From: an uncultured Bacteroidales bacterium
Lineage (GTDB): Bacteria; Bacteroidota; Bacteroidia; Bacteroidales; VadinHA17
Direction of reading: 5' to 3'
NCBI GenBank assembly: GCA_963828395.1
Contig: CAWHED010000004.1
Span: 237,541-301,540, forward strand
Length of the DNA stretch: 64,000 nt
The position numbers and the translations under genes were made by a program. This document shows, piece by piece, positions 46,309 to 63,064 of the stretch. How positions within the stretch are numbered: the stretch's first letter is position 1; the number at the start of each line of letters is the position of its first letter. Below the pieces are notes generated by a model. The model saw only the letters and a program-made list of their open reading frames with translations. It was not told where the DNA came from and did no database searches.

Positions 46309-47232
46309 TCAGACAGCAGTGATCTCGGCCCTCAGCTTCGCAATATAATCGCGTATCTCATTCAGCGTCCCCACAGTGACAGTCATCTCCGTGCCGGAAG
46401 TTGTTATGACCTGGCGCGTCGTGTCTATCCTGACGTCTCCCGGCTGATAGTAAATTTCAAACGTGTCAAACCAGCGATTGAGGTACTTCAGTTTCTTGGT
46501 GTAAAAGACCACCATCGGATCGTCATAATAATTTTTCATGAAGCTGAGCAGCGATATGAGCGAGTACTTCTGTTCGGCTATCTTGCCAACGACCTGCGGG
46601 TCGGGATTTTCAGGATCATATGCCAGCTGTGTGGCAAGGTACATCGCCTCCACCCATCCGCCCATGAGCATCAGTCCCAGGGTCCCCTCGCTTCCTTCCA
46701 GGCGCAGGTGTGTATCTATTTTTTGATAGGCATCATTCATCAGCCCGGTGAGAGTGTCGGCGTTATTGATCTCAGCGTCAAGGCTCCTGATGGCATCTGA
46801 AAGAAAGGTGTCAGGCATGTTCAGCCGTTCGCTCAGGGTCTTGATGGTGCTGAAATAATTCACTGTCTGCCTGTTGATGCCGAAGAGCTTCATGTAACCC
46901 ATGTCGACGCCATAGACCCCGAGGTTCATTGCGGCCTTGTAGCTGCTCATATAAAGATCCTGGTACTCGGTGGCCAGGATTGCCGTGTCATTGTAATGCA
47001 ACCCGAGCCTTTCAAAAATATTACACACTTCCACCGGAGTCAGCAATCCGTAATAGATCTCCCTCATCTTTGAGGTATCCTGGGGAGAGTCCGGAATGTA
47101 TGTGGAAAATACGGGGGTGGGTATATGAGTAGCCTTGTCTGCCCTCTTACATGAAGCGGAGAATATCAGCACCGCACACAACGTAATGAAAACAGGGAGG
47201 GTTTGTCTCATGGCAGCGGAATTTTTCCACAA
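46309..47232 (-). CDS. Hypothetical lipoprotein, first gene of the A2M-pbpC operon
   Basis: The lipobox is LIFSASCKR. It lies 20 nt upstream of the A2M start. I recognise no family. The true start may be Met8 (47211). Confidence 0.6.
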   Translation of the reverse strand: MWKNSAAMRQTLPVFITLCAVLIFSASCKRADKATHIPTPVFSTYIPDSPQDTSKMREIYYGLLTPVEVCNIFERLGLHYNDTAILATEYQDLYMSSYKAAMNLGVYGVDMGYMKLFGINRQTVNYFSTIKTLSERLNMPDTFLSDAIRSLDAEINNADTLTGLMNDAYQKIDTHLRLEGSEGTLGLMLMGGWVEAMYLATQLAYDPENPDPQVVGKIAEQKYSLISLLSFMKNYYDDPMVVFYTKKLKYLNRWFDTFEIYYQPGDVRIDTTRQVITTSGTEMTVTVGTLNEIRDYIAKLRAEITAV

Positions 47233-47265
47233 GTTAAGAAAAAAAAGACTTTCCGGCCAGCGCGA

Positions 47266-49206
47266 TTATAATACAATGCGTCCGCCGAGGCCGGAGGATA
47301 TTTTTTTCTGGAGCGAGGTCATTGTTTTATATCGCTCCTGCAGTGCGGCTATCTTCTCATCATCGCCGGCGGCTTCGGTCATCGCCCTGCGCAGTTCCTT
47401 CTGCATTATCTTGATTTTGTCGCTCTTGAACACGAGGACTGTGTCAGGTACTATTTCCTTCAGTTTCATCTCTTCAGTCTCGACATAAGCACCTCGTGAG
47501 CTCCATATCTTACTGAGCGTATACTGTTCAGTGAGCATGTCGACAGCGATGGCACTGATGGCCGGGTCAGGATGGTGCACGAAATGCCTGTCTCCGGGGA
47601 AAAGACCCTGCGACACATTAAAGGTTATTTCTGAAAAGATAGAGGCAAAGAGCGGGTCGTCAAACAGCAGCTCGTCCTCGGTAATCTGCGAGATGATATA
47701 GTCAGCCACGGTGGTTATGGTCTCAGTCCCTGTCTCCTTGTCGACCACGCGCGACAGCACCTCGTCGCCATAACGTATGAGCAGCCGGAGAAGCTCTTTC
47801 TCGGAGTAAAATGATGTCTCTTCTTTTTTCTTCTGCTTCTGTGCGGTTATCTGGGGTGATACAATGGCATCCTGCACGGGCCACGAGTTGCGGTCGCGGA
47901 AGCTCTGCTGCTTACGCAGCTTCATCACCTCGTCAAGGACCACCTCTTCGGGCATGCTAAGCTGAATGCTGCACTCCTTGATATATACCGTGCGTGTTAT
48001 CTGGTCAGGGATGACGGCTATTGAACGCACCACCTCCCTTACCAGGTTGGCGCGTCTTACGGGATCGTTATGCGCCTCATCGAGGAGCAGGCTTGTCTTA
48101 AATCTTATGAAGTCGGTCTCGTTCTCTTTGAGATATCTCCTGAACTCTTCCTCGGATACTTTTTTGGAGTATGAATCAGGATCTTCGCCATCTGGAAGCA
48201 TGACTATGCGGACATTCATGCCCTCCTCGAGCACCATGTCGGTGCCGCGCACGGATGCCTTCACCCCTGCCGGGTCTCCGTCGTAGAGCATGGTGATGTT
48301 GGGGGTGAAGCGCTTGATGAGGCGTATCTGCTCCTGAGTGAGGGCGGTGCCTGATGATGCAACGACATTCTCAACACCGGCCTCATGCATCGACAGCACG
48401 TCGGTGTAACCCTCGACTAAATAGCAGCGGTCCTCGCGTGTTATGGCCTGGCGTGCCTGGAAGATGCCGTAGACAATACGGCTCTTATGGTAGATCTCTG
48501 TCTCAGGCGTGTTGACATACTTGGCAGCCCTGGGATCGTGTTTGATGATCCTTCCCCCGAAACCCAGCACCTGTCCTGAAAGAGAGTGGATGGGGAACAT
48601 GATGCGGCCGGCGAACCTGTCAAAGAGATAACCCTCCTTGTCAATGGTGAGTCCGCTCAGGACCATATAATCAGTCTTGTAGCCAGCCGACAGGGCCTTC
48701 TGGGTGAAGTCGTCGCGCTTCTCGTTGCAGTAGCCTACATCAAATTTATGCAGCACGGCATCGCGGAAGCCGCGTTCGCGGAAGTATGACAGGCCCAGCG
48801 CCATGCCCTCGTGGCCGTGGAAGAGGTTCTCGGTGAACTGCCTTGCGGCGTACTGTGTAACCACAAGGATACTCTCACGCTCGTTCTGTTTCTGTATCTC
48901 CTCGGCTGTGACCTCCTTCTCCTCTATCTCGATGTTGTATTTCTTTGCCAGATAGCGGAGCGCTTCGGGATAAGAGAGGTGCTCATGCTCCATGATGAAG
49001 TTGACGGCGTTGCCGCCCTTGCCGCAGCCGAAGCACTTGAAGATGCCCTTGGCGGGCGAGACGGTGAACGACGGGGTCTTTTCGTTATGAAAAGGACATA
49101 GTCCCAGGTAGTTGACGCCTCTCTTTTTCAGCGACACGAACTCCTGCACCACCTCGGTTATCTGGGCAGCGTCGAAGATGCGTTCTATTGTTGAGTGGTC
49201 GATCAT
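47266..49206 (-). CDS. dnaG: DNA primase
   Basis: The zinc finger is CPFHNEKTPSFTVSPAKGIFKCFGCGKGG and the Toprim motif is LVEGYTDVL. I prefer the start MIDHSTIERI (49206) over the track Met at 49215. Confidence 0.93.
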   Translation of the reverse strand: MIDHSTIERIFDAAQITEVVQEFVSLKKRGVNYLGLCPFHNEKTPSFTVSPAKGIFKCFGCGKGGNAVNFIMEHEHLSYPEALRYLAKKYNIEIEEKEVTAEEIQKQNERESILVVTQYAARQFTENLFHGHEGMALGLSYFRERGFRDAVLHKFDVGYCNEKRDDFTQKALSAGYKTDYMVLSGLTIDKEGYLFDRFAGRIMFPIHSLSGQVLGFGGRIIKHDPRAAKYVNTPETEIYHKSRIVYGIFQARQAITREDRCYLVEGYTDVLSMHEAGVENVVASSGTALTQEQIRLIKRFTPNITMLYDGDPAGVKASVRGTDMVLEEGMNVRIVMLPDGEDPDSYSKKVSEEEFRRYLKENETDFIRFKTSLLLDEAHNDPVRRANLVREVVRSIAVIPDQITRTVYIKECSIQLSMPEEVVLDEVMKLRKQQSFRDRNSWPVQDAIVSPQITAQKQKKKEETSFYSEKELLRLLIRYGDEVLSRVVDKETGTETITTVADYIISQITEDELLFDDPLFASIFSEITFNVSQGLFPGDRHFVHHPDPAISAIAVDMLTEQYTLSKIWSSRGAYVETEEMKLKEIVPDTVLVFKSDKIKIMQKELRRAMTEAAGDDEKIAALQERYKTMTSLQKKISSGLGGRIVL

Positions 49207-49223
49207 GGGTCTCAAAGTTACTG

Positions 49224-49260
49224 AAAAGTCTGAGACCTTCCGATCTTCAGTCCTTCAGAC
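49224..49260. repeat. Degenerate short-period array of the TCAGAC/GTCTGA family
   Basis: The sequence is aaaagtctgagaccttccgatcttcagtccttcagac. GTCTGA and TCAGAC form its inverted ends. Confidence 0.5.
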
Positions 49261-49301
49261 ATTATTATCAATAATGCTTTTTGGAGAAAGCAAAAAATGA
49301 T

Positions 49302-49309
49302 TATATTTG
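49302..49309 (+). promoter_or_regulatory. -7 promoter box (TATATTTG) for ATPase-1
   Basis: It lies 20 nt upstream of the ATG at 49329. It is embedded in the inverted repeat AAGCAAA (49288-49294) / TTTGCTT (49306-49312). Confidence 0.5.
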
Positions 49310-49328
49310 CTTAATAGAAAAAGCAACA

Positions 49329-50522
49329 ATGGATCAACTATTTGAAAAATACTACAGATTACTTGACAATATCTCGATGGATTTCATAAGGGGCTATGCT
49401 GGTATAATTAACTGGAAGGCCCGTATGATTGGCATTAGAGGAGCGCGTGGTGTGGGTAAAACAACTCTGCTGCTGCAGTACATGAAAAAGAACTTCCCCC
49501 GTGATGGCTCTTCTCTGTATGCAAACCTTGACAATATATGGTTCTCGGAGAACAGGCTGACCGACCTGACAGACAGGTTTGTAAAACAGGGTGGTCACTT
49601 CCTTTTTCTGGACGAGGTGCATAAATATCAGGATTGGTCGCAGGAATTAAAAAATATTTATGATGATTATCCTGGGTTGAAAATAGTTTTTACTGGTTCA
49701 TCACTGCTTGAAATCCGGAAATCGAGGGTTGATCTCAGTCGCCGGGCTGTTGTTTATAATATGCGGGGACTCTCATTCAGGGAGTATCTGAATCTAACTC
49801 TCGGCCTTGACCTTCCGGTTGTCAGGCTTGAGGATATCCTTGCCAGTCCCGTGGATCAGGCACAGGAGATATTGAAAAAGGTTAAGCCTCTGAAGTACTT
49901 CAGCTCCTACCTTAAATCGGGCTATTATCCCTTCTTTCTTGAGGTTCCCGAGTTGTATTTCCACAGGTTGGAAGAGATAATCAATCTGATTATTGAAACG
50001 GAATTACCTCTCCTGAGGAAGGTCGAGGTGGAGAATGTCCCAAAAATGAAGCTTCTGCTTAAAATCCTTGCCGAGTCCGCACCATTCATACCGAATATTG
50101 TAAAGCTGAGCGAGAGGTCAGGTCTGACGCGTAACACAGTCATCTCTTATCTTGGGTATTTGGAAGAGGCACATTTGGAAAAGAACCTGTACAGGAATTC
50201 AAAAGGAATAACCAGGTTACAAAAGCCAGACAAGATTTATCTTGAGAACACTAACCTCATGCATGCCCTGTCTCCTGTCGGAGTCAACATCGGTAACCTC
50301 CGGGAGACCTTTTTTGTAAACCAGCTTAGCGAAAATCATATTGTTGAATACGCAGAGGAGGGAGATTTTACGATTGACGGACAATTTATTTTTGAAACGG
50401 GCGGCAAAACAAAAGGATTCGGTCAGATAAATGGTATCAGCAACAGTTATATTGTTGCTGACGGGATCGAATACGGGACCGGAAACAGGTTACCGCTCTG
50501 GCTGTTCGGATTCTTATACTGA
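49329..50522 (+). CDS. P-loop ATPase (AAA_14/DUF4143-type) with a C-terminal PD-(D/E)xK-like module (ATPase-1)
   Basis: Walker A is GARGVGKTTL and Walker B is FLFLDEVH. The C-terminus has GDFTIDGQFIFETGGKTK. The track start at 49281 is TTG, so I prefer the ATG at 49329. Confidence 0.75.
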   Translation: MDQLFEKYYRLLDNISMDFIRGYAGIINWKARMIGIRGARGVGKTTLLLQYMKKNFPRDGSSLYANLDNIWFSENRLTDLTDRFVKQGGHFLFLDEVHKYQDWSQELKNIYDDYPGLKIVFTGSSLLEIRKSRVDLSRRAVVYNMRGLSFREYLNLTLGLDLPVVRLEDILASPVDQAQEILKKVKPLKYFSSYLKSGYYPFFLEVPELYFHRLEEIINLIIETELPLLRKVEVENVPKMKLLLKILAESAPFIPNIVKLSERSGLTRNTVISYLGYLEEAHLEKNLYRNSKGITRLQKPDKIYLENTNLMHALSPVGVNIGNLRETFFVNQLSENHIVEYAEEGDFTIDGQFIFETGGKTKGFGQINGISNSYIVADGIEYGTGNRLPLWLFGFLY

Positions 50523-50960
50523 TTAGCCGGGCTTTTTCCAAATAATCTTTTTCCCGAAGCCCAGCCTGTTGTCAGTGAGCTTGATGTGATTAAGCCCGAT
50601 GACCCATAGGTGCAGCTCCGTAAGAGCAGCATAAGGGAATCGTCGGAGATAAATTTTTTTGGCACGACTGAGATCATCACTTAAAGGTTCACTGATGATG
50701 CCCGTGAATTGAATTCCACGTATCCTGCCAACGCGCCAGGTTTCAAGGGCGATGGTTCCGGCAACGGAAGGATTGGCAAGGAATTCGGAGCCGTGGCGGG
50801 TAGTTGTGTCGGTGGTGATGACAAGGGTATTATTCTCCTCGTCCCATGCATAAAAGCAGGATGCGCACCAGGGACCGCGGTCACTCACCGTGGCTATGCT
50901 GAGAACATGGTGCCTCCGCAGCAGAGTCTTTATGCGTTTATGCAATTCTACTCGTTCCAC
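50523..50960 (-). CDS. Pyridoxamine 5'-phosphate oxidase-like (YhbP/UPF0306-type) protein
   Basis: HHVLSIATVSDRGPWCASCFYAWDEENNTLVITTDTTTRHG is present. Confidence 0.6.
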   Translation of the reverse strand: MERVELHKRIKTLLRRHHVLSIATVSDRGPWCASCFYAWDEENNTLVITTDTTTRHGSEFLANPSVAGTIALETWRVGRIRGIQFTGIISEPLSDDLSRAKKIYLRRFPYAALTELHLWVIGLNHIKLTDNRLGFGKKIIWKKPG

Positions 50961-51522
50961 CGGAATGTATCAATAGTGAATCCTGCCAGTGTAAGCACCC
51001 TGTCTGTTACTGTGGCCACCAGCTCGTCTATGGTCTGCGGCCTGCTGTAAAAGGAAGGTGTGGCAGGACAAATAACAGCACCGGCCTCGGTGAGCAGCTT
51101 CATATTGTTAATATGTATCAGACTGTACGGTGTCTCGCGGGGTACAAGTATCAGCCGGCGCCGCTCTTTCAGCATCACATCCGCAGCACGGGTGATGAGG
51201 TCGTCGGAGACGCCATGTGCTATCCTGCCAACCATCCCCATTGAAGCCGGACAGATTATCATGGTGTCATACGATGATGAACCGGAAGCAAAAGGTGCAT
51301 TGAAGTCCTTGTTGTCCCATAGTTTCTCGGTGCCTGACGGCACATAAACGGAGCCTGTCTCATATAGCATAATCTCTTCCGCATTACCGGTCAGAATTAC
51401 CGCAACTTCTGATGGGGGTTCCGGCAGCTCACGCAGCGTTTCAGCAGGCTCAGGGCATATATCGCCCCACTGGCGCCCGTGATGGCAACCACTATTTTGC
51501 GTTTATTTGCAGCTAAAGACAT
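50948..51522 (-). CDS. ubiX: Flavin prenyltransferase UbiX, interrupted by a 1-nt frameshift
   Basis: The N-terminal piece (51522-~51440) reads MSLAANKRKIVVAITGASGAIYALSLLK. The second piece (frame of ORF 51370-50948, open upstream) reads TLRELPEPPSEVAVILTGNAEEIMLYETG...ICPASMGMVGRIAHGVSDDLITRAADVMLKERRRLILVPRETP. The total is 575 nt, which is 3n-1. Confidence 0.85.
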
Positions 51523-51527
51523 GGTAA

Positions 51528-51548
51528 TTGCGATTTGCGATTTGCGAT
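51528..51548. repeat. Three tandem TTGCGAT/TTTGCGA heptamers immediately upstream of the ubiX start
   Basis: The sequence is ttgcgat ttgcgat ttgcgat followed by ttttt. It ends 5 nt from the ubiX ATG (minus strand). Confidence 0.9.
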
Positions 51549-51552
51549 TTTT

Positions 51553-51664
51553 CTCAATCTTTCAACCCTTCAACTTTTTCAACCCTTAACGTTCTCAACC
51601 CTTCAACTTCTCAACCTTCAACTTTTCAACCCTCCGACTTTTGACTTTCAGACTTTAGACTTTC
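51553..51664. repeat. Tandem array of about 14 units with an ~8-nt period (TTCAACCC/TTCAACTT grading into CAGACTTT)
   Basis: The sequence reads ctcaatct ttcaaccc ttcaactt tttcaaccc ttaacgtt ctcaaccc ttcaactt ctcaacc ttcaactt ttcaaccc tccgactt ttgacttt cagacttt agacttt. It fills the ribE-ubiX gap and contains the ribE stop codon. Confidence 0.9.
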
Positions 51665-52256
51665 CAAATTGCTGCCTGACAATCTTCGCAATATACTTCC
51701 CGAGTATGTCAAACTCAATGTTCACCACCGTACCCTTTTCGATCTGGTGAAAGTTAGTAACCTCATGCGTGAACGGTATTATAGCCACCTCAAATGAGGT
51801 ATCCTTTGAATTGACAACCGTGAGGCTGACGCCGTTGACACTTACGGATCCCTTTTCGACTGTGAGATGTTCCGGGGATTTAGGTTCATATTCAAAAGTG
51901 TAGTACCATGACCCTTCCGCTTCCCTTACAGAGGTGCATATGGCGGTGAGGTCGACATGACCCTGTACCATGTGACCGTCGAGACGGCCGTCGAGGCGGG
52001 TGCTGCGTTCGAGGTTCACCTTGTCGCCCGGCTTCAGCAGACCGAGGTTGGTCTTGTCAAGCGTCTCGCGTATGGCAGTCACGGTATAGGTGTCGCCCTC
52101 TTTTTTCACTACTGTGAGGCATACGCCGTTATGCGATATGCTCTGGTCGATCTTCAGCTCACCGGTGAATGAGCATCGCATGGTGATATGAATATTATCC
52201 TTTTCGTGTTCAATCCGCACCACCGGTGCGGCTTCCTCTACTATTCCCGAAAACAT
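51648..52256 (-). CDS. ribE: Riboflavin synthase (alpha chain)
   Basis: MFSGIVEE..., SHNGVCLTVV and two lumazine-binding repeats (VNLERS, SVSVNGVSLTVV) are present. I prefer the start at Met27 of the track ORF. Confidence 0.9.
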   Translation of the reverse strand: MFSGIVEEAAPVVRIEHEKDNIHITMRCSFTGELKIDQSISHNGVCLTVVKKEGDTYTVTAIRETLDKTNLGLLKPGDKVNLERSTRLDGRLDGHMVQGHVDLTAICTSVREAEGSWYYTFEYEPKSPEHLTVEKGSVSVNGVSLTVVNSKDTSFEVAIIPFTHEVTNFHQIEKGTVVNIEFDILGKYIAKIVRQQFGKSKV

Positions 52257-52526
52257 TGCTCGTACTTTTGAATCGGGGTAAAGATACGAAATGTTATTGC
52301 CTGAAGAATAGATCAGGCAATAGGCAACAGTCAATAATGGCTTAAGGAGAGTTTTGAGCCTTAAGTTCGAAAAAGTGTGTTAAAATCACATTTTTATGTT
52401 CATAAAAGTGTAAAAGATTAACACAAATATGAACTTAAGGATTTAATGCAAATAAGTTTCTCCTATATTTCAATTATGCATCAAACCGGGTGCAAAACAT
52501 AAATAAAAGACAGATTCAATAATTGT

Positions 52527-52567
52527 TTTATTGTAACAGCGGTTACTGTAATGGCGGTTACAATAAA
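52527..52567. repeat. 41-bp palindromic element, copy A (upstream of ATPase-2)
   Basis: TTTATTGTAAC-agcggttactgtaatggcg-GTTACAATAAA has 11-bp perfect arms. It ends 5 nt before the -7 box. Confidence 0.85.
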
Positions 52568-52572
52568 TTTCC

Positions 52573-52580
52573 TATATTTG
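52573..52580 (+). promoter_or_regulatory. -7 promoter box (TATATTTG) for ATPase-2
   Basis: It lies 20 nt upstream of the ATG at 52600. Confidence 0.5.
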
Positions 52581-52599
52581 ACGGATTAAAGAAAAGGCT

Positions 52600-53910
52600 A
52601 TGGAATTCATTGATCGTGAAAATGAGTTGAAACTCCTGGAAGGGATACGGAAAAGGTCTGAGAAATCCGGCATCCTGACCGTCATTACCGGACGGCGAAG
52701 AATTGGCAAGACAACATTAACAATGAAGGCATTCGAAGGGCATCCCTTTGTCTATTTCTTTGTTGTAAGGAAAAATGAAATATTACTTTGCCAGGAATTT
52801 ATTGAAGAAATCAACAGGGGTCTCAAGATCGACGTTCTGGGGGAGTTCAACAGTTTTGCGCGATTGTTTGAATACCTCCTGGTTCATTCCCAAACCCACC
52901 CTTTCACTCTTGTGATCGATGAGTTTCAGGAGTTTTTAAATGTAAGCAGTGGCATATATGGTGAAATGCAAAAATTGTGGGACAGGTATAAGGCGACAGC
53001 AAAAATAAATCTCATTTTATGCGGTTCGGTTTTTTCGATGATGAAAAAAATCTTTGAGAATGAAAAAGAACCATTATTTGGAAGGGCAAATGAGCGCATC
53101 AGCCTGCAGCCATTCAGTGTCGATGTTTTGAAAAACCTTCTCAAAGGACGTTTCACCGATATTAAAAATAAAGATATCCTTGCATTCTATACGATTACCG
53201 GTGGCGCTGCCAGATATGTTGAGCTCTTCTGTGACAAGGATATTTACACATTTCCACAAATGCTGGACGAAGTATTCAGGGAAAACTCCTTGCTGATTGA
53301 TGAAGGTAAAAATGTACTGATTGAAGAGTTCGGCAGGGATTATGCTATTTATTTCTCCATATTGTCTCTCATTTCTTCCTCAAAAACATCCAGACCTGAT
53401 ATAGAGTCAATACTTCAGAAGGATATTGGCGGGTATCTTGACAAGCTGGAAAATGAATATATGCTAATCAGGAGTGTCCGGCCCGTCCTGGCAAAACCCG
53501 GAGGGAGAATTCAGAGGTATACTATTAATGACAATTTTTTATCGTTCTGGTTTCGTTTTGTTTACAAGTACCGCAGTGCAGTAGAAATAGGTAATTTTAA
53601 ATATCTTAAGGCAGTGGTTAAGCGTGATTTCGATACATATTGTGGCCTGTTTCTTGAGAAATATTTCAGGGAGAAGATTGTATTGAGTGGAGAGTATACG
53701 TCAATAGGGAGCTATTGGGAAAAGGGTAACCGGAACGAAATCGACATTGTCGCAATTGATGATATGAACAAGAAGGTTCTTATTGCAGAGGTAAAAATGA
53801 AAAAATCAAGCTTCAGACCTCGGATTTTACGGGAAAGCGCCAGAAACCTGGTGAATAAGTTTGGAGAGTACCAGGTTGAATACCAGTCATTTTCACTTGA
53901 TGGAATCTGA
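52600..53910 (+). CDS. P-loop ATPase (archaeal-ATPase/DUF234-type) with a C-terminal PD-(D/E)xK-like module (ATPase-2)
   Basis: FIDRENEL is present. Walker A is GRRRIGKTTL and Walker B is TLVIDEFQ. The C-terminus has NEIDIVAIDDMNKKVLIAEVKMKK. Confidence 0.78.
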   Translation: MEFIDRENELKLLEGIRKRSEKSGILTVITGRRRIGKTTLTMKAFEGHPFVYFFVVRKNEILLCQEFIEEINRGLKIDVLGEFNSFARLFEYLLVHSQTHPFTLVIDEFQEFLNVSSGIYGEMQKLWDRYKATAKINLILCGSVFSMMKKIFENEKEPLFGRANERISLQPFSVDVLKNLLKGRFTDIKNKDILAFYTITGGAARYVELFCDKDIYTFPQMLDEVFRENSLLIDEGKNVLIEEFGRDYAIYFSILSLISSSKTSRPDIESILQKDIGGYLDKLENEYMLIRSVRPVLAKPGGRIQRYTINDNFLSFWFRFVYKYRSAVEIGNFKYLKAVVKRDFDTYCGLFLEKYFREKIVLSGEYTSIGSYWEKGNRNEIDIVAIDDMNKKVLIAEVKMKKSSFRPRILRESARNLVNKFGEYQVEYQSFSLDGI

Positions 53911-53975
53911 AAACCCGGCATAATTTCCCCGGGCGAAGGAAACGCAAACCAGAATAAACTCAGCACCATAATTTA

Positions 53976-54015
53976 TTTATTGTAACAACGGTTACCGTAA
54001 CGGTGGTTACAATAA
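53976..54015. repeat. 41-bp palindromic element, copy B (downstream of ATPase-2)
   Basis: TTTATTGTAAC-aacggttaccgtaacggtg-GTTACAATAA. The spacer is 15/19 identical to copy A, in the same orientation. Confidence 0.85.
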
Positions 54016-54288
54016 GTTCAAAAAGTCAGAAACGGCAATCAACATCAATCCCTGGTTTTAATTATCATGTAAAAATCAATGCATACGGTGTGACAAAGAG
54101 TTGTAAGTATAGTTTAAACATTTCTTGTTCAGAAAGAAAATTGAAACCATACTTACAAAAAAGTGTGATTTTGTGGAAAGTTGCAAGTATACTTATAACT
54201 AATTCCGTTGTTATGCATTTATGCAGTTCGAATGCAAATCTGCATAAATGGGGTCTACCGAGGGGAAGGTTCTAAGGCTTTTGAATTT

Positions 54289-54318
54289 CGACCCTCAGAC
54301 CCTCAGACCCTCAGACTT
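54289..54318. repeat. TCAGACCC octamer array (3.75 units) at the ileS 3' end
   Basis: The sequence is cgaccc tcagaccc tcagaccc tcagactt. The reconstructed ileS stop (54311-54313) lies inside the last unit. Confidence 0.9.
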
Positions 54319-57300
54319 TTTCTACCAGCACTTTCACCATCTGCTCTTCGATATCAATCTCCTTTGCCCCGGCAGCTGAGAGTTTATCAGAAGAGGCCAG
54401 AGAGATCTCCAGCGCCAGAGTCTGGGAGGCGATATAGTCAGAGTGCTTATTAACAGCAACAGATACAAACGGCAAATCCTCAATGACAACCCTGATTTTG
54501 TCGGTGACCTCGAAGCCGAGAGTCCTTGCGGATGTTCTGTATGCGGTTCACAAACTCACGGGCGATGCCTTCATGAAGCAGTTCCCCGGTGACGGTTATG
54601 TCAAGCGCAACAGTCAGCCGGCCTTCATTGGCGACAAGCCATCCGGGGATATCCTCCGAGATTATTTCAACATCATCAGTGGTTATCTGGTAAACCTCAC
54701 CGTCAAGCTTCAGGTTCCGTGTTCCGAGTTTCTCGAATTCTGCTATCTCTGACTGAGTAAGGGCCAATATGGCAGCTCCCGCTTCCTTCATCTTCTTCCC
54801 GAAACGGGGACCAAGAAGCTTGAAATTAGGCTTGACTTTTCTTACCAGCAGGCCGGATGTGTCATCGACATACTCGACATCCTTGACATTGACTTCGGTC
54901 AGTATCAGCGATTTGACAGCTTCAAAGCTGCTTTTAAAGTTACCGTCAGTAACAGGTACCATTATCCTGGCAAGCGGCTGGCGCACCCTGATGTTCACAC
55001 GCCGTCTGAGAGCCAGGATCATCGACGACATCTTCTGCGCGATCTCCATCCTCTCCTCAAGGGCTTTGTCAATCAGCTTCTCATTATATGACGGAAATGC
55101 CGTAAGATGCACCGAGCCCTCTTTATCTCTGCCGCTGACCGGGTTGAGATCGGTGAAAATGCGGTCAGTGAAGAAAGGTATGACGGGTGAAGCCAGTTTA
55201 GCCACTGTTTCAAGACATGTATATAGTGTCTGGTAGGCCGAGAGCTTGTCTTCGTCCAGTCCGCCGCCCCAGTAACGCTTCCGGTTGAGGCGCACGTACC
55301 AGTTCGAGAGGTTCTCGGTGACGAACTCCGAGATAGCCCTGCCTGCAGGAGTGATGTCATAATCGTCATACCGGTCGGTGACCTCTTTGATAAGGGTATT
55401 CAGCAGCGAGATGATCCACCGGTCTATCTCAGGCCTTTTCTCCATCGGCACCTGCGGCTCGTTCCCGGTGAACCCGTCAACGTTAGCATACAGGGCAAAG
55501 AAGGAATAAGTATTATATAAGGTACCGAAGAACTTACGCTTCACCTCTTCCACTCCGGAAATGTCGAAGCGGAGGTTATCCCACGGCTGCGCGTTGGTGA
55601 GCATGTACCACCGCAGCGGGTCGGAGCCGTGCTGATCGATGGTGCTGAAAGGATCAACAGCGTTTGCGAGCCGCTTCGACATCTTGTTACCGTTCTTATC
55701 GAGCACGAGGCCGTTGGAGATGATATTCCTGAATGAGACCGAATCGGATATCATTGCGGCGATGGCATGAAGGGTGAAGAACCATCCTCGTGTCTGGTCA
55801 ACACCTTCGGCGATGAAGTCGGCAGGAAATTTTTCCGGGAAATCAACTTTGTTCTCGAAGGGATAATGTGCCTGTGCATAGGGCATGGCTCCCGAGTCAA
55901 ACCAAACGTCAATGAGATCCGTCTCGCGTTTCATGGGTCTGCCGGTTCTGCTGACGAGGATGATCGCGTCAACGAACGGACGATGCAGGTCGAGCAGTGA
56001 ATAGTTTTCCAGGCTGTTGTCGCCCTCGGCGAAGTTTGCCAGGGGATTATGGGTCATATAACCTGCATCGACGCTGCGTGATATTTCCATCTTGAGCTCA
56101 GCTACTGACCCGATGCATATTTCTTCCTGACGGTCCTCAGTCATCCAGATCGGCAGGGGAGTACCCCAGAAGCGTGAGCGCGACAGGTTCCAGTCGACCA
56201 GGTTCTCGAGCCACTTGCCGAAGCGTCCGCTGCCGGTGCTCTCGGGCTTCCATTTGATAGTGTTGTTAAGCTCTATCATACGGTCGCGCAGCGCTGTGGT
56301 GCGTATGAACCACGAGTCAAGGGGGTAATACAGAACAGGTTTGTCGGTGCGCCAGCAGTGCGGATAGGTATGTATCTGTTTCTCTATGCGGAAGGCTTTT
56401 CCCTCCTGTTTGAGCATCACAGCGATGTCAACGTCGAGGGTGGGGTCAGTTTCCGTAAGGGATTCGTCATATTCGTTCTTGACATAGCGGCCTGCAAACG
56501 GACCGTATGTTGTTGTATTTACGTGCGTGGCCGTGAACGCCTGGTCAAGATCCTCGAGCGGCACCATGCGACCGCGGCGGTCGACAAGCGGTCCCTGAAA
56601 GCCGTCTGACATCACCACCATAAGTGGCGGGATGCCGTTCTCACGACCTGCACGGTAGTCGTCGGCGCCGAAGGTGGGCGCAATATGTACAATGCCGGTA
56701 CCGTCGACGGTGGTGACAAAATCACCTGTGATAACACGGAAGGCGCCTTCGCCCGGATCAACCCAGTTGATGAGCTGCTCATAGTCGATGCCCTTGAGCT
56801 CCGAGCCCTTGTATGTGCCTGTGACTTTGTATTCCAGCTTTTTGTCAGGGGCAAATATAACAGGTATAAGCTCTTCAGCCAGTATGACAGTGATCGGTTC
56901 GGAGGTATAGGGATTTGTGGTTCTGACCTTTGCATATTTAATATCCGTACCAACAGCCAGGGCAGTATTTGACGGGAGGGTCCACGGCGTGGTGGTCCAT
57001 GCCATGATCTTCACTCCCGCTGTGTCTATGTCTTTGAAAAGGAATTCCGAGTGCGCGTTTCGTTTTACGGTAAAGAGCGCAATGCAGGTTGTGTCCTTCA
57101 CATCGCGGTAGCAGCCCGGCATATTGAGCTCATGCGAGCTCAGGCCTGTGCCTGCTGCCGGGGAGAAGGGCTGTATGGTGTAACCCTCATAGAGCAGACC
57201 TTTTTTATAAAGCTCCTTCAGCAGCCACCAGAGGGTCTCGATATACCTGTTGTCGTATGTCACATACGGATTGTCCATATCGATCCAGTAGCCCATGTGA

Positions 57301-57713
57301 CGTGTCAGATCCTCCCACACGTCGGTATATTTCATCACATCCTTGCGGCAGGCAGCATTGTACTCCTCCACAGAGATTTTCGTCCCGATATCTTCCTTTG
57401 TGATGCCCAGGGTTTTCTCCACGCCGAGCTCGACTGGCAGTCCGTGGGTATCCCAGCCGGCTTTGCGTTTCACCTCGTAACCCTGCATTGTTTTGTAGCG
57501 GCAGATGGTGTCCTTGATGGCGCGGGCCATGACATGGTGTATACCGGGCAGTCCGTTGGCCGAGGGCGGACCTTCATAAAAGACAAATTCACCCTTGCCG
57601 TTACGACTGCGGAGCGACCGGCGGAAGGTGTCATTATCATCCCACATCTTCAGCACCTCGCTGTTCACCTTTGCCAGGTCAAGACCCTTGTATTCGGGAA
57701 ATCTTTTGGACAT
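54311..57713 (-). CDS. ileS: Isoleucine--tRNA ligase, with an apparent +1 frameshift ~200 nt before the true 3' end
   Basis: The HIGH-type motif is PPSANGLPGIHHVMAR and the KMSKS motif is NKMSKR. The track ORF stops at 54480 after KDSRLRGHRQNQGCH. Dropping one base near 54518 gives KDS-GFEVTDKIRVVIEDLPFVSVAVNKHSDYIASQTLALEISL...VLVEKV*, a typical IleRS C-terminus ending at 54311. I prefer the start MSKRFPEYKGL (57713). Confidence 0.93.
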
Positions 57714-57752
57714 ATAACCTATCTCATTTTTAACAGGGTGCAAAGGTAGTTA

Positions 57753-57792
57753 AAAAGTCTGAAAGTCATAAGAGCTCAGGTCTGAAGGTCAG
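57753..57792. repeat. AAAGTCTG-type octamer array (complement orientation of TCAGACTT)
   Basis: The sequence is aaaagtct gaaagtca taagagct caggtctg aaggtcag. It lies in the ileS/ATPase-3 divergent gap. Confidence 0.7.
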
Positions 57793-57914
57793 TTCAATTA
57801 AAGCCTGAAAACGAACCTCGGTTCTGCCGATTGAATTGTGGCAGCAGGGGTTTATTGAAAAGGATGTTGCCGTGGATATTTTTAAATAAGTTTGCATTTA
57901 CTCAATATAATGAG

Positions 57915-57922
57915 TAAATTTG
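57915..57922 (+). promoter_or_regulatory. -7 promoter box (TAAATTTG) for ATPase-3
   Basis: It lies 28 nt upstream of the ATG at 57950. It overlaps the inverted repeat ATTTACTCA (57896-57904) / TGAGTAAAT (57911-57919). A third TGAGTAAA copy is at 57933-57940. Confidence 0.45.
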
Positions 57923-57949
57923 CTCAACGTAATGAGTAAATTTAAAATC

Positions 57950-59134
57950 ATGTTCCAAAGGCCTGTTATTAAGGATATTGAAACGCGGATGAATCAGGAG
58001 AGAAGCTTCATTCAGTTAATTACCGGTCCGCGACAGATAGGTAAAACTACCCTGGTACTGCAGCTTCTTGATATGCTGAAAGTCGAGTCTCAGTATATAA
58101 CCGCCGACGGTGCCGGCGGATACGGAGAGTCTTGGTTAGAGAAGCACTGGGAAGCAGCGAGGCAAATCATAAAATCAAAAGAAACCGGGGATTTTATTCT
58201 GGCTATCGATGAGATTCAGAAAATTGAAAACTGGAGTGAAACCGTAAAGAAACTGTGGGATGAAGACACAGTAAATCAAATCCGTCTTAAGGTTATTATT
58301 TCGGGGTCATCGAGACTGCTGCTTCAGAAAGGCCTTACGGAATCACTTGCAGGAAGGTTCGAGATTACCTATATGGGACACTGGTCTTATGCAGAGATGA
58401 AGGCTGCATTCGGATGGAGTGCAAATCAGTTCGTATGGTACGGAGGATACCCCGGATCTGCACTGCTGATTGAAGACGAACGGAGATGGAAGCGTTATGT
58501 CACAGACTCTCTTGTTGAAACCAGTATATCGAAGGACATCCTGATGCTTACACGGGTTGACAAGCCTGCTCTTATGCACCGTCTTTTTGAGCTGGGGTGC
58601 AGGTATTCGGGTCAGGAGTTGTCTTTTACCAAAATTCTCGGACAGTTGCAGGATTCGGGCAACACGGTAACACTGTCGCATTACCTGGAACTTCTGGGAT
58701 CAGCAGGCCTCCTCTCAGGGATTGAAAAATATTCCGGAAGCATTATCAGACAGCGTTCTTCCAGCCCTAAATTCGTTGTGCACAACACTGCCCTGATGAG
58801 TTCCTCCGCCATTGAGTCATTTGAGGAGATTACTACCCTGCCCGACCGCTGGGGCCGCTTCGTGGAGTCTGCCATAGGAGCACATTTACTCGATGGGCAC
58901 GTAAAGGGTTTTTATTCACTGTATTACTGGAGAAGGGGCAATGACGAAGTGGACTTTGTTCTGGTCAAAGGAGACAGGATTACTGCCCTGGAGGTAAAAA
59001 GTGGCAGTGTCTCAGGAAGATCAGGATTGAATGCATTTTGCAGCCTTTACAGTCAGGCCAGGGTAATTCTCATAGGCGAAAAAGGGATACCGTGGCAAGC
59101 GTTTCTGAAGATGGAGATTAGTGAGTTTATTTAA
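57950..59134 (+). CDS. P-loop ATPase (AAA_14/DUF4143-type) with a C-terminal PD-(D/E)xK-like module (ATPase-3)
   Basis: Walker A is GPRQIGKTTL and Walker B is ILAIDEIQ. The C-terminus has NDEVDFVLVKGDRITALEVKSG. The start is ambiguous: ATG at 57950 or 57932. The track TTG at 57920 is unlikely. Confidence 0.78.
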   Translation: MFQRPVIKDIETRMNQERSFIQLITGPRQIGKTTLVLQLLDMLKVESQYITADGAGGYGESWLEKHWEAARQIIKSKETGDFILAIDEIQKIENWSETVKKLWDEDTVNQIRLKVIISGSSRLLLQKGLTESLAGRFEITYMGHWSYAEMKAAFGWSANQFVWYGGYPGSALLIEDERRWKRYVTDSLVETSISKDILMLTRVDKPALMHRLFELGCRYSGQELSFTKILGQLQDSGNTVTLSHYLELLGSAGLLSGIEKYSGSIIRQRSSSPKFVVHNTALMSSSAIESFEEITTLPDRWGRFVESAIGAHLLDGHVKGFYSLYYWRRGNDEVDFVLVKGDRITALEVKSGSVSGRSGLNAFCSLYSQARVILIGEKGIPWQAFLKMEISEFI

Positions 59135-59162
59135 TCTTTAATCAATCCTTAGTTAAAAAATC

Positions 59163-59194
59163 CATCAACTTTTCAACCCATCAACTTTTCAACT
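59163..59194. repeat. Two tandem 16-nt units (CATCAACTTTTCAACY) of the TTCAAC family
   Basis: The sequence is catcaact tttcaacc catcaact tttcaact. Confidence 0.85.
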
Positions 59195-59202
59195 ATTTAT
59201 AT

Positions 59203-59210
59203 TACCTTTG
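59203..59210 (+). promoter_or_regulatory. -7 promoter box (TACCTTTG) for the dksA-like gene
   Basis: It lies 28 nt upstream of the ATG at 59238. Confidence 0.45.
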
Positions 59211-59237
59211 CCTATTAAAATTCAAACACCGGTAGCT

Positions 59238-59615
59238 ATGGCAGAAAAGACAAGATATTCGGATGAGGAGCTGGAGGAGTTCAGGCATATTATATTGACC
59301 AAGCTCGAGAAAGCCAGACGCGACTACGAGGTTCTCAAGGCCAGTATCACCCACGAGGATAACAATGATACGATGGACACCTCTCCCACCTTCAAGGTGC
59401 TGGAAGAGGGTGCCACCACACTGTCAAAGGAAGAGGCAGGAAGGCTGGCACAGCGGCAGCTGAAATTCATCCAGCATCTGCAGGCAGCGCTGGTTCGTAT
59501 CGAGAACAAGACCTACGGCATCTGCCGTGATACGGGACAGCTCATCAGCAAGGAGCGTCTCCGCGCCGTGCCCCACGCCACGCTCTCCATGGAGGCCAAG
59601 CTGAGACAAAAATAG
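59238..59615 (+). CDS. DksA/TraR-family regulator (degenerate zinc finger)
   Basis: YSDEELEEFRHIIL and the coiled-coil region are present, with the C-terminal ENKTYGICRDTGQLISKERLRAVPHATLSMEAK. I prefer the ATG at 59238 over the track TTG at 59208. Confidence 0.7.
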   Translation: MAEKTRYSDEELEEFRHIILTKLEKARRDYEVLKASITHEDNNDTMDTSPTFKVLEEGATTLSKEEAGRLAQRQLKFIQHLQAALVRIENKTYGICRDTGQLISKERLRAVPHATLSMEAKLRQK

Positions 59616-59694
59616 TCTTAAAGTCTGAAGTCTGGAAGCCCAAAGTCCAAAGTCCAAAGACCCCTCAGGCTTCAGACCCTCAGACCTGAGACCT
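59615..59694. repeat. Composite array that switches orientation (AAGTCTG/AAAGTCC units, then TCAGACC units), giving a long imperfect hairpin between convergent genes
   Basis: The sequence is gtcttaaagtctgaagtctggaagcccaaagtccaaagtccaaagacccctcaggcttcagaccctcagacctgagacc. It abuts both stop codons (59615 and 59693). Confidence 0.8.
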
Positions 59695-61213
59695 AGTTTG
59701 ATCTCGCGTTCCTGAAGATAATATTGTAAATACTTTTCCAGAAGTACCGGAGGTCGGTGCCGAAATGGTTTTTGTCCCAGGCATCTAAGTATTTTATCTC
59801 GGAGAGCTGTATCTCAAGGAGTCCCGCAGGCATGTCAGCATAGTATGGAGGAATAAGACCAGGTTTGTATTTAATGCGCCGGTTGCGAATCTCATCGGCA
59901 TATAAATTGAAATAGTGCTGTGAAAGAGGCCGTACTCCTATTATCTTCATATCTCCCCGGAAAAGATTGACGACCATCGGAAGTTCGTCGAGCCATATGC
60001 GTCTGGAGAAGCGACCCCATCCGGTAACGCGGAAGTCGTGCCTGAGCTTGCCTCCGGCTTGCAGATCATGAAGGTCATAGACATATTCCTGCAGGAACTC
60101 AGAATAGGGGTGCATGGTGCGCAGTTTGTAGACAATAAAAGTATTTCCGTCGCGACCAATGCGCGGCAAGGCAATGATCATACCGTAACCGCTGCCGTTG
60201 ACAGGCAAAGGCTCTGATTTTCGCTGTGCCCTGATGCACAATATGTTTCCGGCAAACTTTTCCTGCTTTATGGCAAAACCGGCACGGCACAGACGACCCA
60301 GCGCCTCGGCCCGCGAGAGAGGCGCATTGGCACCCCGCGTCATGAAATTCCACAGACCTCTGGTCAGACGCAGACGGGGAGCAACCCTCCTGATAAGAAA
60401 ATCCGGAACAGCAACAAAAAGATAATACAATACCGGTGTAAACTTATGACGCAGGCGGCTGGCACGCTGCTCCAGCGTCTCCACACTGCATAAAAATACC
60501 CCGTCTCCGGTCAGCCTGACATTAACCGCATCAAGGAAGGCATCGATGTCATTAATGCTGTTCATGGGTTTCAGGTTGATGATACCGGAATAGTCTCCCG
60601 GCGCCAGGTTCTGTATGTTAAAAGGCTCTGCCGTTGATACAACGGCCAGACGTGATCCCTCGGCACGGCTTACCATAGACGATAATGCCTCGGCCCTATC
60701 CCGTGAACATCCCTTCTGCAGCCGGAGAGTCAGCTCAGGATCAGGCCTGTTACCGTTGCCGTTCTCCGGATGTGAACGGGCAACCATGGCGCGCTCAGAC
60801 GGCCTGATCAGGTCAGAATCCTGAAGGGAAGCCTTGCTGAATGCCAGCCAGATCATACCCGCCGCCAGCTCCAGAAACGTAGCTGCAAGCGCGGTTCCGA
60901 AGACAACAGTCCTCGAATAACCCAGATCGCGAACGGCAAACAAAATCAGGGCAGCTAAACTGGTGGCAATGAGGTTTGATGTTACAACATAGTAAAAAAG
61001 TGTTCTCAGATTAATGATATGTCCCCTGCCTATCTTGCCGTTCAGAAACGACACCGCTACCCACAGAAGGGCAAGGATAAGGAAGAATGGTGCATGCGAC
61101 GGAACATACTCTTTAAATCCTGTTGGCTTAAACAAGGTCATAACGAAGTATGACACGGCCAGGATGAGAATGTCAAGAAAAAAACTGTAGTTCCGAAAAC
61201 GACGTGTATTCAT
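59693..61213 (-). CDS. Polyprenyl-phosphate sugar phosphotransferase (Bac_transf family, WbaP/initiating enzyme-like)
   Basis: The N-terminus has TM segments. The C-terminus has FIVYKLRTM...LDELPMVVNLFRGDMKIIGVRP...KPGLIPPYYAD. Confidence 0.8.
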   Translation of the reverse strand: MNTRRFRNYSFFLDILILAVSYFVMTLFKPTGFKEYVPSHAPFFLILALLWVAVSFLNGKIGRGHIINLRTLFYYVVTSNLIATSLAALILFAVRDLGYSRTVVFGTALAATFLELAAGMIWLAFSKASLQDSDLIRPSERAMVARSHPENGNGNRPDPELTLRLQKGCSRDRAEALSSMVSRAEGSRLAVVSTAEPFNIQNLAPGDYSGIINLKPMNSINDIDAFLDAVNVRLTGDGVFLCSVETLEQRASRLRHKFTPVLYYLFVAVPDFLIRRVAPRLRLTRGLWNFMTRGANAPLSRAEALGRLCRAGFAIKQEKFAGNILCIRAQRKSEPLPVNGSGYGMIIALPRIGRDGNTFIVYKLRTMHPYSEFLQEYVYDLHDLQAGGKLRHDFRVTGWGRFSRRIWLDELPMVVNLFRGDMKIIGVRPLSQHYFNLYADEIRNRRIKYKPGLIPPYYADMPAGLLEIQLSEIKYLDAWDKNHFGTDLRYFWKSIYNIIFRNARSN

Positions 61214-61274
61214 TTACCCTCTATTCTCGTGCAATATATGACAAATTTACTCCAAGAGTTATCTTTGCATAAAG

Positions 61275-62873: not shown

Positions 62874-62882
62874 ATTTCTTAA

Positions 62883-63035
62883 CCTCTACGAGGTAATTTG
62901 TTTTGTTTTACCGCATGTTCTACAATAATTAATGCTCTACGAGCATTGATTGGTGATGCCATGTCGGTTCTACAATAATTAATGCTCTACGAGCATTGAT
63001 TGGTGAATGCCTCGTAGAGGCTAAAATTATTGTAG
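62883..63035. repeat. Repeat/hairpin cluster upstream of upxY: CCTCTACGAGG (x3 direct, x1 inverted), a 40-bp unit duplicated with a 50-bp period, and a 24/25-nt inverted partner
   Basis: The direct copies gttctacaataattaatgctctacgagcattgattggtga lie at 62917-62956 and 62967-63006. The inverted partner ctcgtagaggctaaaattattgtag lies at 63011-63035. cctctacgagg at 62883-62893 is the perfect complement of 63010-63020. Confidence 0.85.
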
Positions 63036-63056
63036 GACAACCATCCCAAATTTTAT

Positions 63057-63064
63057 TAAATTTG
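63057..63064 (+). promoter_or_regulatory. -7 promoter box (TAAATTTG) for upxY
   Basis: It lies 20 nt upstream of the ATG at 63084. Confidence 0.5.

Follow-up and report, generated by a model that had tools for sequence, protein, structure and literature searches.

Short tandem repeats at gene ends of an uncultured Bacteroidales bacterium: probable members of a hypervariable, lineage-wide repeat family

The stretch of DNA considered here (the window) comprises 64,000 nucleotides (nt) of contig CAWHED010000004.1 from an uncultured Bacteroidales bacterium (assembly GCA_963828395.1). In its right-hand part, a backbone of dnaG, ubiX, ribE, ileS, dksA and a sugar transferase gene alternates with single ATPase genes, and many of the gaps between these genes are occupied by tandem arrays with units of about 8 nt (Table 1; gene identities are from Pfam). 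The ileS protein had homologues of 97-73% identity in metagenome-assembled genomes (MAGs) of uncultured Bacteroidales. A preliminary description had listed six arrays, here called A to F. When the sequence was read at each site, all six were found where they had been placed, and together they form one family with units of about 8 nt at gene ends, as had been proposed. Tandem Repeats Finder (TRF) detected 51561-51664 (periods 8, 16 and 7), 54290-54316 (3.4 perfect copies of GACCCTCA), 59162-59194 (two perfect copies of a 16-nt unit) and 59636-59694. The arrays at 49224-49260 and 57753-57792 were looser, with 2-4 degenerate units recognized by eye and as matches to GTCTGA. The unit dimer GTCNRARRGTCNRA was observed six times in the window compared to 0.10 expected, and GTTGARRRGTTGA six times compared to 0.02; none of 100 shuffles reached six unit dimers, which excludes chance. 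The hexamer GTCTGA occurred 41 times in the window compared to 31.6 +/- 4.9 expected, and the list of hits showed that the excess consisted of the arrays, with no enrichment beyond them.

Three further arrays, absent from the preliminary description, were detected by TRF at 51528-51550, 52315-52336 and 39217-39249. The last of these qualifies the statement that the first 49 kb hold no array, which was otherwise nearly true: an array of (GATTTGC)4.7 lies in frame in the PBP1C gene at 39217-39249, and two units of GTCTGAAGGTCTGA are found at 20803-20816. The latter pair is antisense in a plus-strand open reading frame (ORF; 20031-21458) and is perhaps a minimal stop-free array within an ORF, or perhaps due to chance. 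The clustering held as described: seven of the approximately 10 spacers in 49-64 kb carried arrays, compared to none of approximately 13 in 1-49 kb, by an informal count made by reading, with no formal test. The TRF arrays of period 7-8 in the window had 3.1-9.1 copies, which places them among the repeats with at least three head-to-tail units of 5-11 nt that are classed as long simple sequence repeats (LSSRs) or short tandemly repeated repetitive (STRR) sequences. Eight of the 11 TRF arrays in the window were intergenic (nine if the loose arrays A and D are counted, array F making up two rows), a bias to non-coding DNA; the remainder were two short coding repeats, possibly there by chance, and the 33-nt in-frame array in the PBP1C gene. 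The same unit recurred at several loci in the window, namely GTCTGA-type units at five, GTTGA-type units at two and AAATCGC at two.

Table 1. Tandem arrays and neighbouring genes in the window
Feature	Position	Strand	Description
PBP1C array	39217-39249	minus	(AAATCGC)4.7, plus strand (GATTTGC)4.7; in frame inside PBP1C (38298-40733, minus); encodes ...LNRKSQIANRKSE... in a hypervariable loop
dnaG	47266-49206	minus	Pfam
Array A	49224-49260		Small inverted pair AAAGTCTGAGAC / CTTCAGTCCTTCAGAC; between the divergent starts of dnaG (49206) and the AAA_14 ATPase (49329)
AAA_14/DUF4143 ATPase	49329-50522	plus	Pfam
ubiX	50948-51522	minus	Pfam
ubiX-side array	51528-51550	minus	(AAATCGC)3.3, plus strand (TTGCGAT)3.3; ends 5 nt before the ubiX ATG (51522); TRF and sequence
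Array B	51553-51664	minus (sense)	About 14 units, GTTGARRR grading to GTCNRA; fills the ribE-ubiX spacer
ribE	51648-52256	minus	Pfam
ribE-upstream array	52315-52336	plus	(AGGCAAT)3.1; 59 nt upstream of the ribE start; G-rich strand directed away from ribE; TRF
ATPase_2/DUF234 gene	52600-53910	plus	Pfam
Array C	54289-54318	minus (ileS sense)	(GGGTCTGA)3; first TGA (54311-54313) is the ileS stop
ileS	54311-57713	minus	Pfam
Array D	57753-57792	plus	Loose AAGTCTGA/AGGTCTGA units; immediately before the ileS promoter in ileS direction (TACCTTTG, minus strand); G-rich strand directed away from ileS
Second AAA_14/DUF4143 ATPase	57932-59134	plus	Pfam
Array E	59159-59194	minus	Two 16-nt double units (GTTGAAAAGTTGATGG, minus strand); overlaps the -33 region of the dksA promoter
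DksA/TraR-type gene (dksA)	59238-59615	plus	Pfam
Array F, left arm	59616-59659	plus	AAGTCTGA / AAGTCCA units; begins right after the dksA stop TAG (59613-59615)
Array F, right arm	59660-59692	minus	GGTCTGAG units on the minus strand; begins right after the Bac_transf stop (59693-59695); pairs with the left arm
Sugar transferase (Bac_transf)	59693-61213	minus	Pfam

The arrays reach into the genes that they adjoin. As the preliminary description had noted, the stops of ribE (51648-51650) and ileS are each the TGA of a repeat unit read on the gene strand. Array B begins within the last ribE codons, and its units encode the C-terminal GKSKV* of this ribE, compared to GKG* in L091 (L numbers denote the loci compared). 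On the plus strand, array B contains 39 C and 5 G, and array E contains no G in 36 nt. Array A carries GTCTGA on the plus strand in its left half and on the minus strand in its right half, each directed away from the nearer gene, and array F (59616-59692) does flip its orientation midway. The AAATCGC array before the ubiX ATG has the same arrangement in L004, and the same unit family precedes start codons in L016 and L009. Arrays of the AGGCAAT type, such as that upstream of ribE, are frequent in relatives (L001, 1781-1810 and 9916-9945; L004, 1927-1956).

The family is widely dispersed. We scanned for three successive GTCTGARG units (GTCTGARGGTCTGARGGTCTGA), using one genome per species, and obtained at least 118 loci, where well under one was estimated by chance. 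Among the 80 titled loci in the matches listed, 51 were from Bacteroidota MAGs (Bacteroidales, 'Rikenella'-labelled, Lentimicrobiaceae, Saprospiraceae and Chitinophagales) and 15 from Verrucomicrobiota or other members of the Planctomycetes-Verrucomicrobia-Chlamydiae group; many genomes among these matches had several such loci. No GTCTGARG array was found within an ORF in the sense orientation. In a wider set of 93 loci with a G+C content below 58% (794 kb), TRF found 273 arrays of period 6-9, among which a few families predominated, namely GTCTGAAG/GTCTGAGG, AGGCAAT/AGGCAGT, AAATCGC and GTCNTGCR. The recurring unit families can be written as RRGTCNRA (including GTCTGARG and GTTGARRR), GTCNTGCR, AGGCAAT and AAATCGC, and a single spacer frequently combines several of them, leading from the stop codon through (GTCTGARG)n, (GTCNTGCR)n, ... 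and (TGCCTAT)n to the promoter. The pattern occurred in only 2 of 2.9 million viral contigs, and the arrays are therefore not a phage feature. An assembly artefact was also rejected, as the same arrays were present in SPAdes, MEGAHIT and long-read assemblies across many studies. A full-text literature search with the array sequences returned unrelated primer matches only. In several loci (L042, L089, L101, L106, L021 and L080), an element of about 45 nt (GCGCTAAAATGACCCACCGGGTCATTTTTTAACGCTCG, a small hairpin with a T-run) and the palindrome TCCGCCAGCTGGCGGA were interleaved with the arrays, and these make many Bacteroidales spacers mosaics that resemble bacterial interspersed mosaic elements (BIMEs).

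The arrays are polar with respect to genes. Across the 273 arrays, reading the G- or purine-rich strand 5' to 3' leads away from the gene next to the array. Among arrays no more than 15 nt from a stop codon, those with G>C on the gene-sense strand outnumbered the opposite by 46 to 11 (p = 3e-6), and by 23 to 6 at stops when only arrays not used in selecting the loci were counted (p = 0.002). Within 60 nt of a start, the G-rich strand was directed away from the gene in 45 cases and towards it in 15. A stop that faced the 5' end of the G-rich strand was separated from it by a median gap of 4-6 nt and frequently lay inside the first unit, whereas the median gap was about 100-120 nt for a stop facing the other end of the array (antisense). 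This is the polar placement described for other repeats by Rehm et al. (2015). All intergenic arrays of the window fit it. This holds for the two halves of A and for those of F, the left arm of F doing so by purine content and not by G>C. It follows that, after a stop codon, the G-rich strand is the one found in the mRNA, and it often contains the stop itself; before a start or promoter, it is the non-coding one. An early count by the same-strand 5' neighbour (61 versus 26) was an artefact: it was distorted because ORFs ran through the stop-free strand of the arrays, and masking of the arrays gave balanced strands (35 versus 29), so that the real signal lies in distance and polarity. A filter against stop codons was rejected as the sole cause of the polarity, since a bias to stops in all three frames was not significant in the unselected arrays (11 versus 7); nor can it be the general cause, because the published GGGAATC units have no stop codon on either strand. 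G-quadruplex formation was rejected as well, most units having no GGG.

The structure of the arrays in RNA depended on their context. The preliminary description had suggested that array F pairs as a long imperfect hairpin between convergent genes, and in the folding run this hairpin was strong on both strands, with -27.6 kcal/mol (z -3.9) on the plus strand and -39.8 kcal/mol (z -4.8) on the minus strand, where the transferase-strand hairpin is followed by the U-run UAUUUUUGU. The sense RNA of array B was less structured than all 200 shuffles (z +2.39). Array C paired weakly with a degenerate inverted arm at about 54252-54280 (dG -30, z -1.6), the fold of array A was not significant (z -0.3 and -0.6), arrays D and E were unstructured, and none of B, D and E formed a hairpin on folding against shuffles. 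The wider set of loci showed the same division: convergent spacers with arrays had a median z of -2.5, with 11 of 20 below -2, while co-directional spacers with arrays had a median z of -0.1 and exceeded +1 in 13 of 38 cases, compared to 10 of 87 for those without arrays. Rfam returned only two tRNAs for the whole window and no match in the arrays, and a consensus scan found no terminators in the array gaps; the sigma-70 promoter part of that scan was uninformative, as Bacteroidota promoters are of another type. These results agree with the earlier opinion that the arrays are neither clustered regularly interspaced short palindromic repeats (CRISPR) nor repetitive extragenic palindromic (REP) elements and, with the possible exception of array F and its U-run, probably not canonical terminators, in which a short G+C-rich hairpin leads directly into a U-run. 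A likeness of the units to the hammerhead core (GUC, CUGA) did not fit the consensus and was dismissed.

We compared the window with four syntenic loci (L001, L002, L003 and L004). The backbone dnaG-ubiX-ribE-ileS-dksA-transferase was kept across them, and the ATPase, AbiEii and HipA genes in the spacers came and went. The arrays were conserved in position and variable in length and sequence. Array E lies within a block that is 95% identical in L001 and L004, both of which lack the ATPase gene at 57932-59134, and the insertion point of this gene is about 10 nt outside array E, not within it. The ribE-ubiX array of L004 is orthologous to array B with a different unit make-up, and the ribE 3' end bears arrays in L004, L091 and L002 irrespective of the genes inserted nearby. 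At the site of array C, L001 has a different array (AAGTCCAAGGTCTGAAAGTCC...), and at the position of array D, both L001 and L004 have a (TGCCTAT)n array upstream of the ileS promoter. The units in L002 were mainly others (GTCCTGCG, ACCGAAT and AAGACAA), frequently in inverted pairs. The syntenic region contained 6-12 arrays per 23 kb in L001, L002 and L004 and none in L003.

In the comparison of 47000-62000 with these loci, the housekeeping spacers were seen to hold variable single-gene cassettes, namely AAA_14/DUF4143, DUF234, AbiEii, HipA and 23S-rRNA-IVP genes. One spacer may serve different lineages: an ATPase between dksA and ileS was present only in the window and L003. The DUF234 gene is bracketed by 51-nt direct repeats (52519-52569 and 53968-54018) that are 86% identical and internally palindromic (TTTATTGTAAC...GTTACAATAAA); similar palindromes flank a decayed copy in L004, whereas the spacer of L001 showed none. 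These repeats may mark the borders of the cassette or serve as operators. The promoter and start of the second AAA_14/DUF4143 ATPase gene are covered by two 22-nt palindromic boxes in tandem (ATTTACTCAATATAATGAGTAA; 57896-57939). The boxes also precede the orthologous ATPase in L003 and therefore resemble an autoregulatory operator. The genes ileS (at about 54518) and ubiX (at about 51403-51436) are broken by single-base frameshifts and are otherwise intact and 97-98% identical to relatives; the frameshifts are more likely to be consensus errors of a long-read assembly than signs of pseudogenes.

The dksA and transferase stops are 0-3 nt apart in L001, L004 and L002, and in the window exactly 77 nt, all of it array F, lie between them. 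We found no seed for this array in these three relatives and no evident target-site duplication. In relatives from metagenomes, other arrays begin in the dksA stop (TAG|TCTGAAGGTCTAA...), often followed by a canonical hairpin and T-run; in L130, the dksA-transferase junction has a hairpin of GTCCTGCR units, a family different from that of array F. In contigs about 98.8% identical (L127 versus L131 and L133), the CCGACCTT units vary in number. Thus, the arrays are hypervariable, differing in copy number and unit make-up between close relatives, as well as being gained de novo, and copy-number change by slippage is well supported. A tolerant loop of PBP1C also takes up arrays in frame: homologues at 89-90% identity have no insert, and in other PBP1C homologues this loop holds in-frame arrays that belong to different families, with peptide repeats that correspond to intergenic unit families in translation. 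This was confirmed at the DNA level by (GGACCGCA)15.6 in L135 (2436-2560) and (ACCGAAT)10.4 in L136 (3063-3135). The surface loop between WHMP... and ...PPLTAPAIWLTYEAL is thus a hotspot for in-frame arrays of the unit families found in the spacers, with peptide repeats such as NRKSQIA, QDRKTAGP and PNTEYRL.

Heptamers of the cyanobacterial STRR type were reportedly described by Mazel et al. in 1990. Rehm et al. (2015; PMC4692102) studied intergenic heptamers, GGGAATC in Xanthomonas and GGGGA(T/C)T in Nostoc, for which a function was not found. These repeats lie on average 28 nt from the 5' ORF and 160 nt from the 3' ORF, in any ORF orientation, and overlap stops. Ours are like them in the tandem repetition of units of about 7 nt at numerous loci (of which about 90% are intergenic in the Rehm set), in the nearness of the 5' end of the G-rich strand to the neighbouring ORF irrespective of its orientation, in the overlap with stops, in being under-represented between divergent genes, and in the occurrence of inverted pairs. 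They also keep their positions in relatives while length and sequence vary, and their neighbours share no functional theme. The differences are that the window units are 7-8 nt long and mostly without G-quadruplex potential (GGG tracts number only three in array C and are absent from most units), that several unit families occur in one spacer, that many units carry a stop codon, and that the hosts are Bacteroidales and Verrucomicrobiota. The TAACTGA direct repeats of Beggiatoaceae, Cyanobacteria and five Bacteroidetes (MacGregor 2015; PMC4679880) are similar as stop-bearing heptamers in intergenic tandem sets with a patchy distribution across phyla, including Bacteroidetes. They are likewise mixed with other heptamers and absent from the same spacer in close relatives, and their copies within ORFs occur only in the stop-free orientation, giving 7-residue peptide repeats. 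However, their unit sequence differs, and in BOGUAY, the genome of Beggiatoaceae that was studied, they stand mostly just upstream of starts in forward orientation, whereas the commonest family here begins at stops. The LSSRs of Mrazek et al. (2007), as summarized in PMC4679880, have 5-11-nt units, heptamers being the commonest, a sporadic phylogeny and a proposed origin by slippage; that summary names no Bacteroidales among the ten repeat-richest genomes it quotes, and polarity and mosaic structure are outside the definition it gives.

Other classes of repeats resemble the arrays less. With REP elements, BIMEs and the hairpin-forming REP doublets known as REPINs, the arrays share an intergenic position, often at 3' ends and between convergent genes, mosaic spacers, and inverted doublets that form long hairpins of about 70-110 nt (77 nt in array F). 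REP elements are, however, defined imperfect palindromes of 20-40 nt mobilized by REP-associated tyrosine transposases (RAYTs), whereas here the arms are degenerate tandem units. REP and REPIN elements were rejected, as A, C, D and F have only the units in common and no longer consensus, and no RAYT was seen next to the arrays. The DNA uptake sequence of Neisseria, GCCGTCTGAA, contains GTCTGAA and often forms inverted pairs that serve as terminators after genes. It is over-represented genome-wide as single copies, including in coding DNA, unlike the tandem units here, and an uptake sequence was rejected because the excess of GTCTGA is confined to arrays. CRISPR was rejected in that the units are 7-8 nt long and contiguous without spacers, compared to repeats of 24-48 nt with unique spacers. 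Phase-variation repeats, which switch expression by unit number from a tract inside an ORF or among the promoter elements of surface or virulence genes, were rejected on position, in view of the housekeeping neighbours (ileS, ribE, ubiX, dksA and dnaG) and the position of most arrays after stops.

We consider it reasonably probable that the arrays are local members of a lineage-wide class of hypervariable 7-8-nt tandem repeats at gene boundaries, and not a system linked to the ATPase genes. They are of a known kind, previously described as long simple sequence repeats or heptamer satellites in Xanthomonas, Nostoc and Beggiatoaceae, and they occur in many uncultured Bacteroidales and also in Verrucomicrobiota, filling non-coding DNA directly at gene boundaries. 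Their turnover, we infer, is driven by slippage. In such a scheme, the arrays would grow and shrink by slipped-strand replication, and their orientation would be fixed by selection or by a transcription-linked bias, the context then setting the effect. An array that spaces an operon, such as B, would give a trailer that is unstructured, C-poor and stop-rich and in which no reading frame stays open. Where genes converge, two arrays that face each other, such as the arms of F, would pair into a long bidirectional hairpin that probably ends both transcripts. Arrays upstream of promoters (D, E and A) would present a C-rich, G-poor and unstructured stretch to incoming transcription and therefore may act as insulators.

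Several points weigh against this explanation. Every function named for the arrays, whether trailer, spacer, terminator or insulator, is one that we infer. Slippage from local seeds alone does not explain how the same units came to unrelated loci and two phyla, nor how 77 nt arose between abutting stops. The gene calls that underlie the statistics were made by a crude ORF caller after the arrays had been masked, and the closing of reading frames as a cause of polarity is opposed by the non-significant three-frame-stop bias in unselected arrays and by the stop-free GGGAATC units. In several relatives (L125-L134), the array after dksA is followed by a canonical hairpin and T-run, so that the array itself is not the terminator there. 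No promoter motif was seen in the spacer of array B, which is apparently within an operon; this array thus cannot be a strong terminator.

The preliminary description had connected the arrays with three single ATPase genes and offered target sites or scars of cassette insertion as one explanation. That the arrays are targets or scars left by single-gene cassettes (the AAA_14/DUF4143 and DUF234 ATPases) is now extremely unlikely and largely refuted. It is true that these are the very spacers in which syntenic relatives variably have ATPase, AbiEii and HipA genes, and that four of the six arrays lie in spacers adjoining an ATPase gene. But array E is retained in L001 and L004 without the ATPase, whose junction falls about 10 nt beyond it; the arrays at the ribE 3' end do not depend on what is inserted nearby, B and F adjoin no ATPase gene, and the same families follow the stops of many unrelated genes in many genomes. 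The cassettes have repeats of their own, the DUF234 cassette its 51-nt palindromic direct repeats at both ends and the AAA_14 gene its 22-nt operator-like repeats. Because the arrays persist without these genes and the cassettes bear other repeats, neither the ATPase link nor the insertion scar is supported, and an attC or cassette site of an integron, which would be an imperfect palindrome that travels with its cassette, was rejected for the same two observations. Another possibility is that the arrays are actively written or homogenized, by templated addition at breaks, gene conversion among dispersed arrays or the mobilization of hairpins in the manner of REPINs or miniature inverted-repeat transposable elements. 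The 77-nt insertion of array F without a seed, the different families at one hotspot (the dksA junction and the PBP1C loop), the same few families at many loci, and a small gene in L002 flanked by inverted arrays (1385-1484 and 1845-1866) would fit such a process. We nevertheless hold it to be very unlikely, as no transposase, reverse transcriptase or RAYT was seen adjoining the arrays, array F has no evident target-site duplication, the arrays share no conserved element longer than the units, and the differences in copy number are slippage-like.

The arrays could instead be polar transcription insulators, in which an array read towards a gene presents a C-rich, G-poor, unstructured loading site for Rho with YC dinucleotides at regular spacing; Rho would then stop incoming read-through or antisense transcription there and ignore the G-rich RNA read away from the gene. 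The polarity at both gene ends, the composition of arrays E and B on the strand read towards the gene (towards ribE in the case of B), the lack of structure in the gene-ward strands and the absence of canonical terminators from the gaps by consensus scan are all in keeping with this. Yet many arrays are only 25-40 nt long, below the length of a typical Rho loading site. The cyanobacteria, including Nostoc, are not known to have Rho. Since the same polarity is reported in Nostoc (PMC4692102), a Rho-based reading cannot be general, as a cause of the polarity or otherwise; we regard insulation by Rho as improbable. It is also quite improbable that the arrays are cooperative binding platforms with one unit for each monomer of a conserved protein, such as a cold-shock or oligonucleotide-binding-fold protein on single-stranded RNA or a ribbon-helix-helix-like protein on duplex DNA. 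The period of 7-8 nt equals the footprint of a cold-shock protein, many units have a GTC(T) core and the same unit is found in Bacteroidota and Verrucomicrobiota. Bacillus CspB prefers GTCTTTG/T (PMC1904285), and MacGregor proposed binding of S1, Csp or CsrA to the TAACTGA repeats (PMC4679880). However, unrelated unit families stand at equivalent positions and one replaces another at the same site, the units are degenerate and no candidate protein was identified; the likeness to the CspB site extends to only 3-4 bases, so that a binder of the cold-shock type is a lead only. It is rather unlikely that the arrays are functionless microsatellite DNA, with a polarity that arises incidentally, either from a mutational bias linked to transcription or because purifying selection removes harmful orientations. 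They are hypervariable, lost without obvious consequence, absent across the syntenic region of L003 and tolerated in a protein loop, and published analyses found no function. Against this, the octamer is common to different phyla, the arrays at the ribE 3' end persist across species with about 77-86% nucleotide identity to the window, and structure tracks context, with hairpins only where genes converge.

Other repeats were seen elsewhere in the window. The 3' portions of tRNA genes are duplicated at 14391-14841, beside the tRNA at 14678-14752, and at about 33.35 kb, where a partial copy (33243-33848) matches the tRNA at 36603-36677 (36537-36713). The latter copy and its tRNA gene bracket a stretch of low G+C content (0.38-0.43), which suggests an island integrated at the tRNA gene. 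A repeat of about 45 nt (GTTCTACAATAATTAATGCTCTACGAGCATTGATTGGTGA) occurs twice in the spacer before the NusG-like gene (62874-63083), which also has inverted repeats of CTCTACGAGG/CCTCGTAGAG.

Intergenic repeats of the heptamer type have been known for decades without an accepted function. Our results add a large uncultured clade of Bacteroidales and the Verrucomicrobiota to their hosts, and extend the published polarity rule to units that cannot form G-quadruplexes and, judging by the composition of the published units and by the unselected arrays, to units without stop codons, by which two obvious explanations of the rule are removed. The context-dependent structure, the hairpin that arose de novo between abutting stops and the in-frame PBP1C units could serve as handles on whether the arrays set transcript boundaries. 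For annotation, the arrays account for odd C-terminal residues and stops, as in ribE and ileS, and for low-complexity inserts in proteins. There is also a small chance that the arrays function as gene-boundary elements and that a conserved factor, common to Bacteroidota and Verrucomicrobiota, reads or writes them. If this were true, a limited alphabet of 7-8-nt units would be actively propagated to gene ends and to tolerant protein loops, an array would be a one-way signal, for example one that outgoing transcription passes and at which incoming transcription is stopped, and the heptamer satellites, which have been without a function since 1990, would have one.

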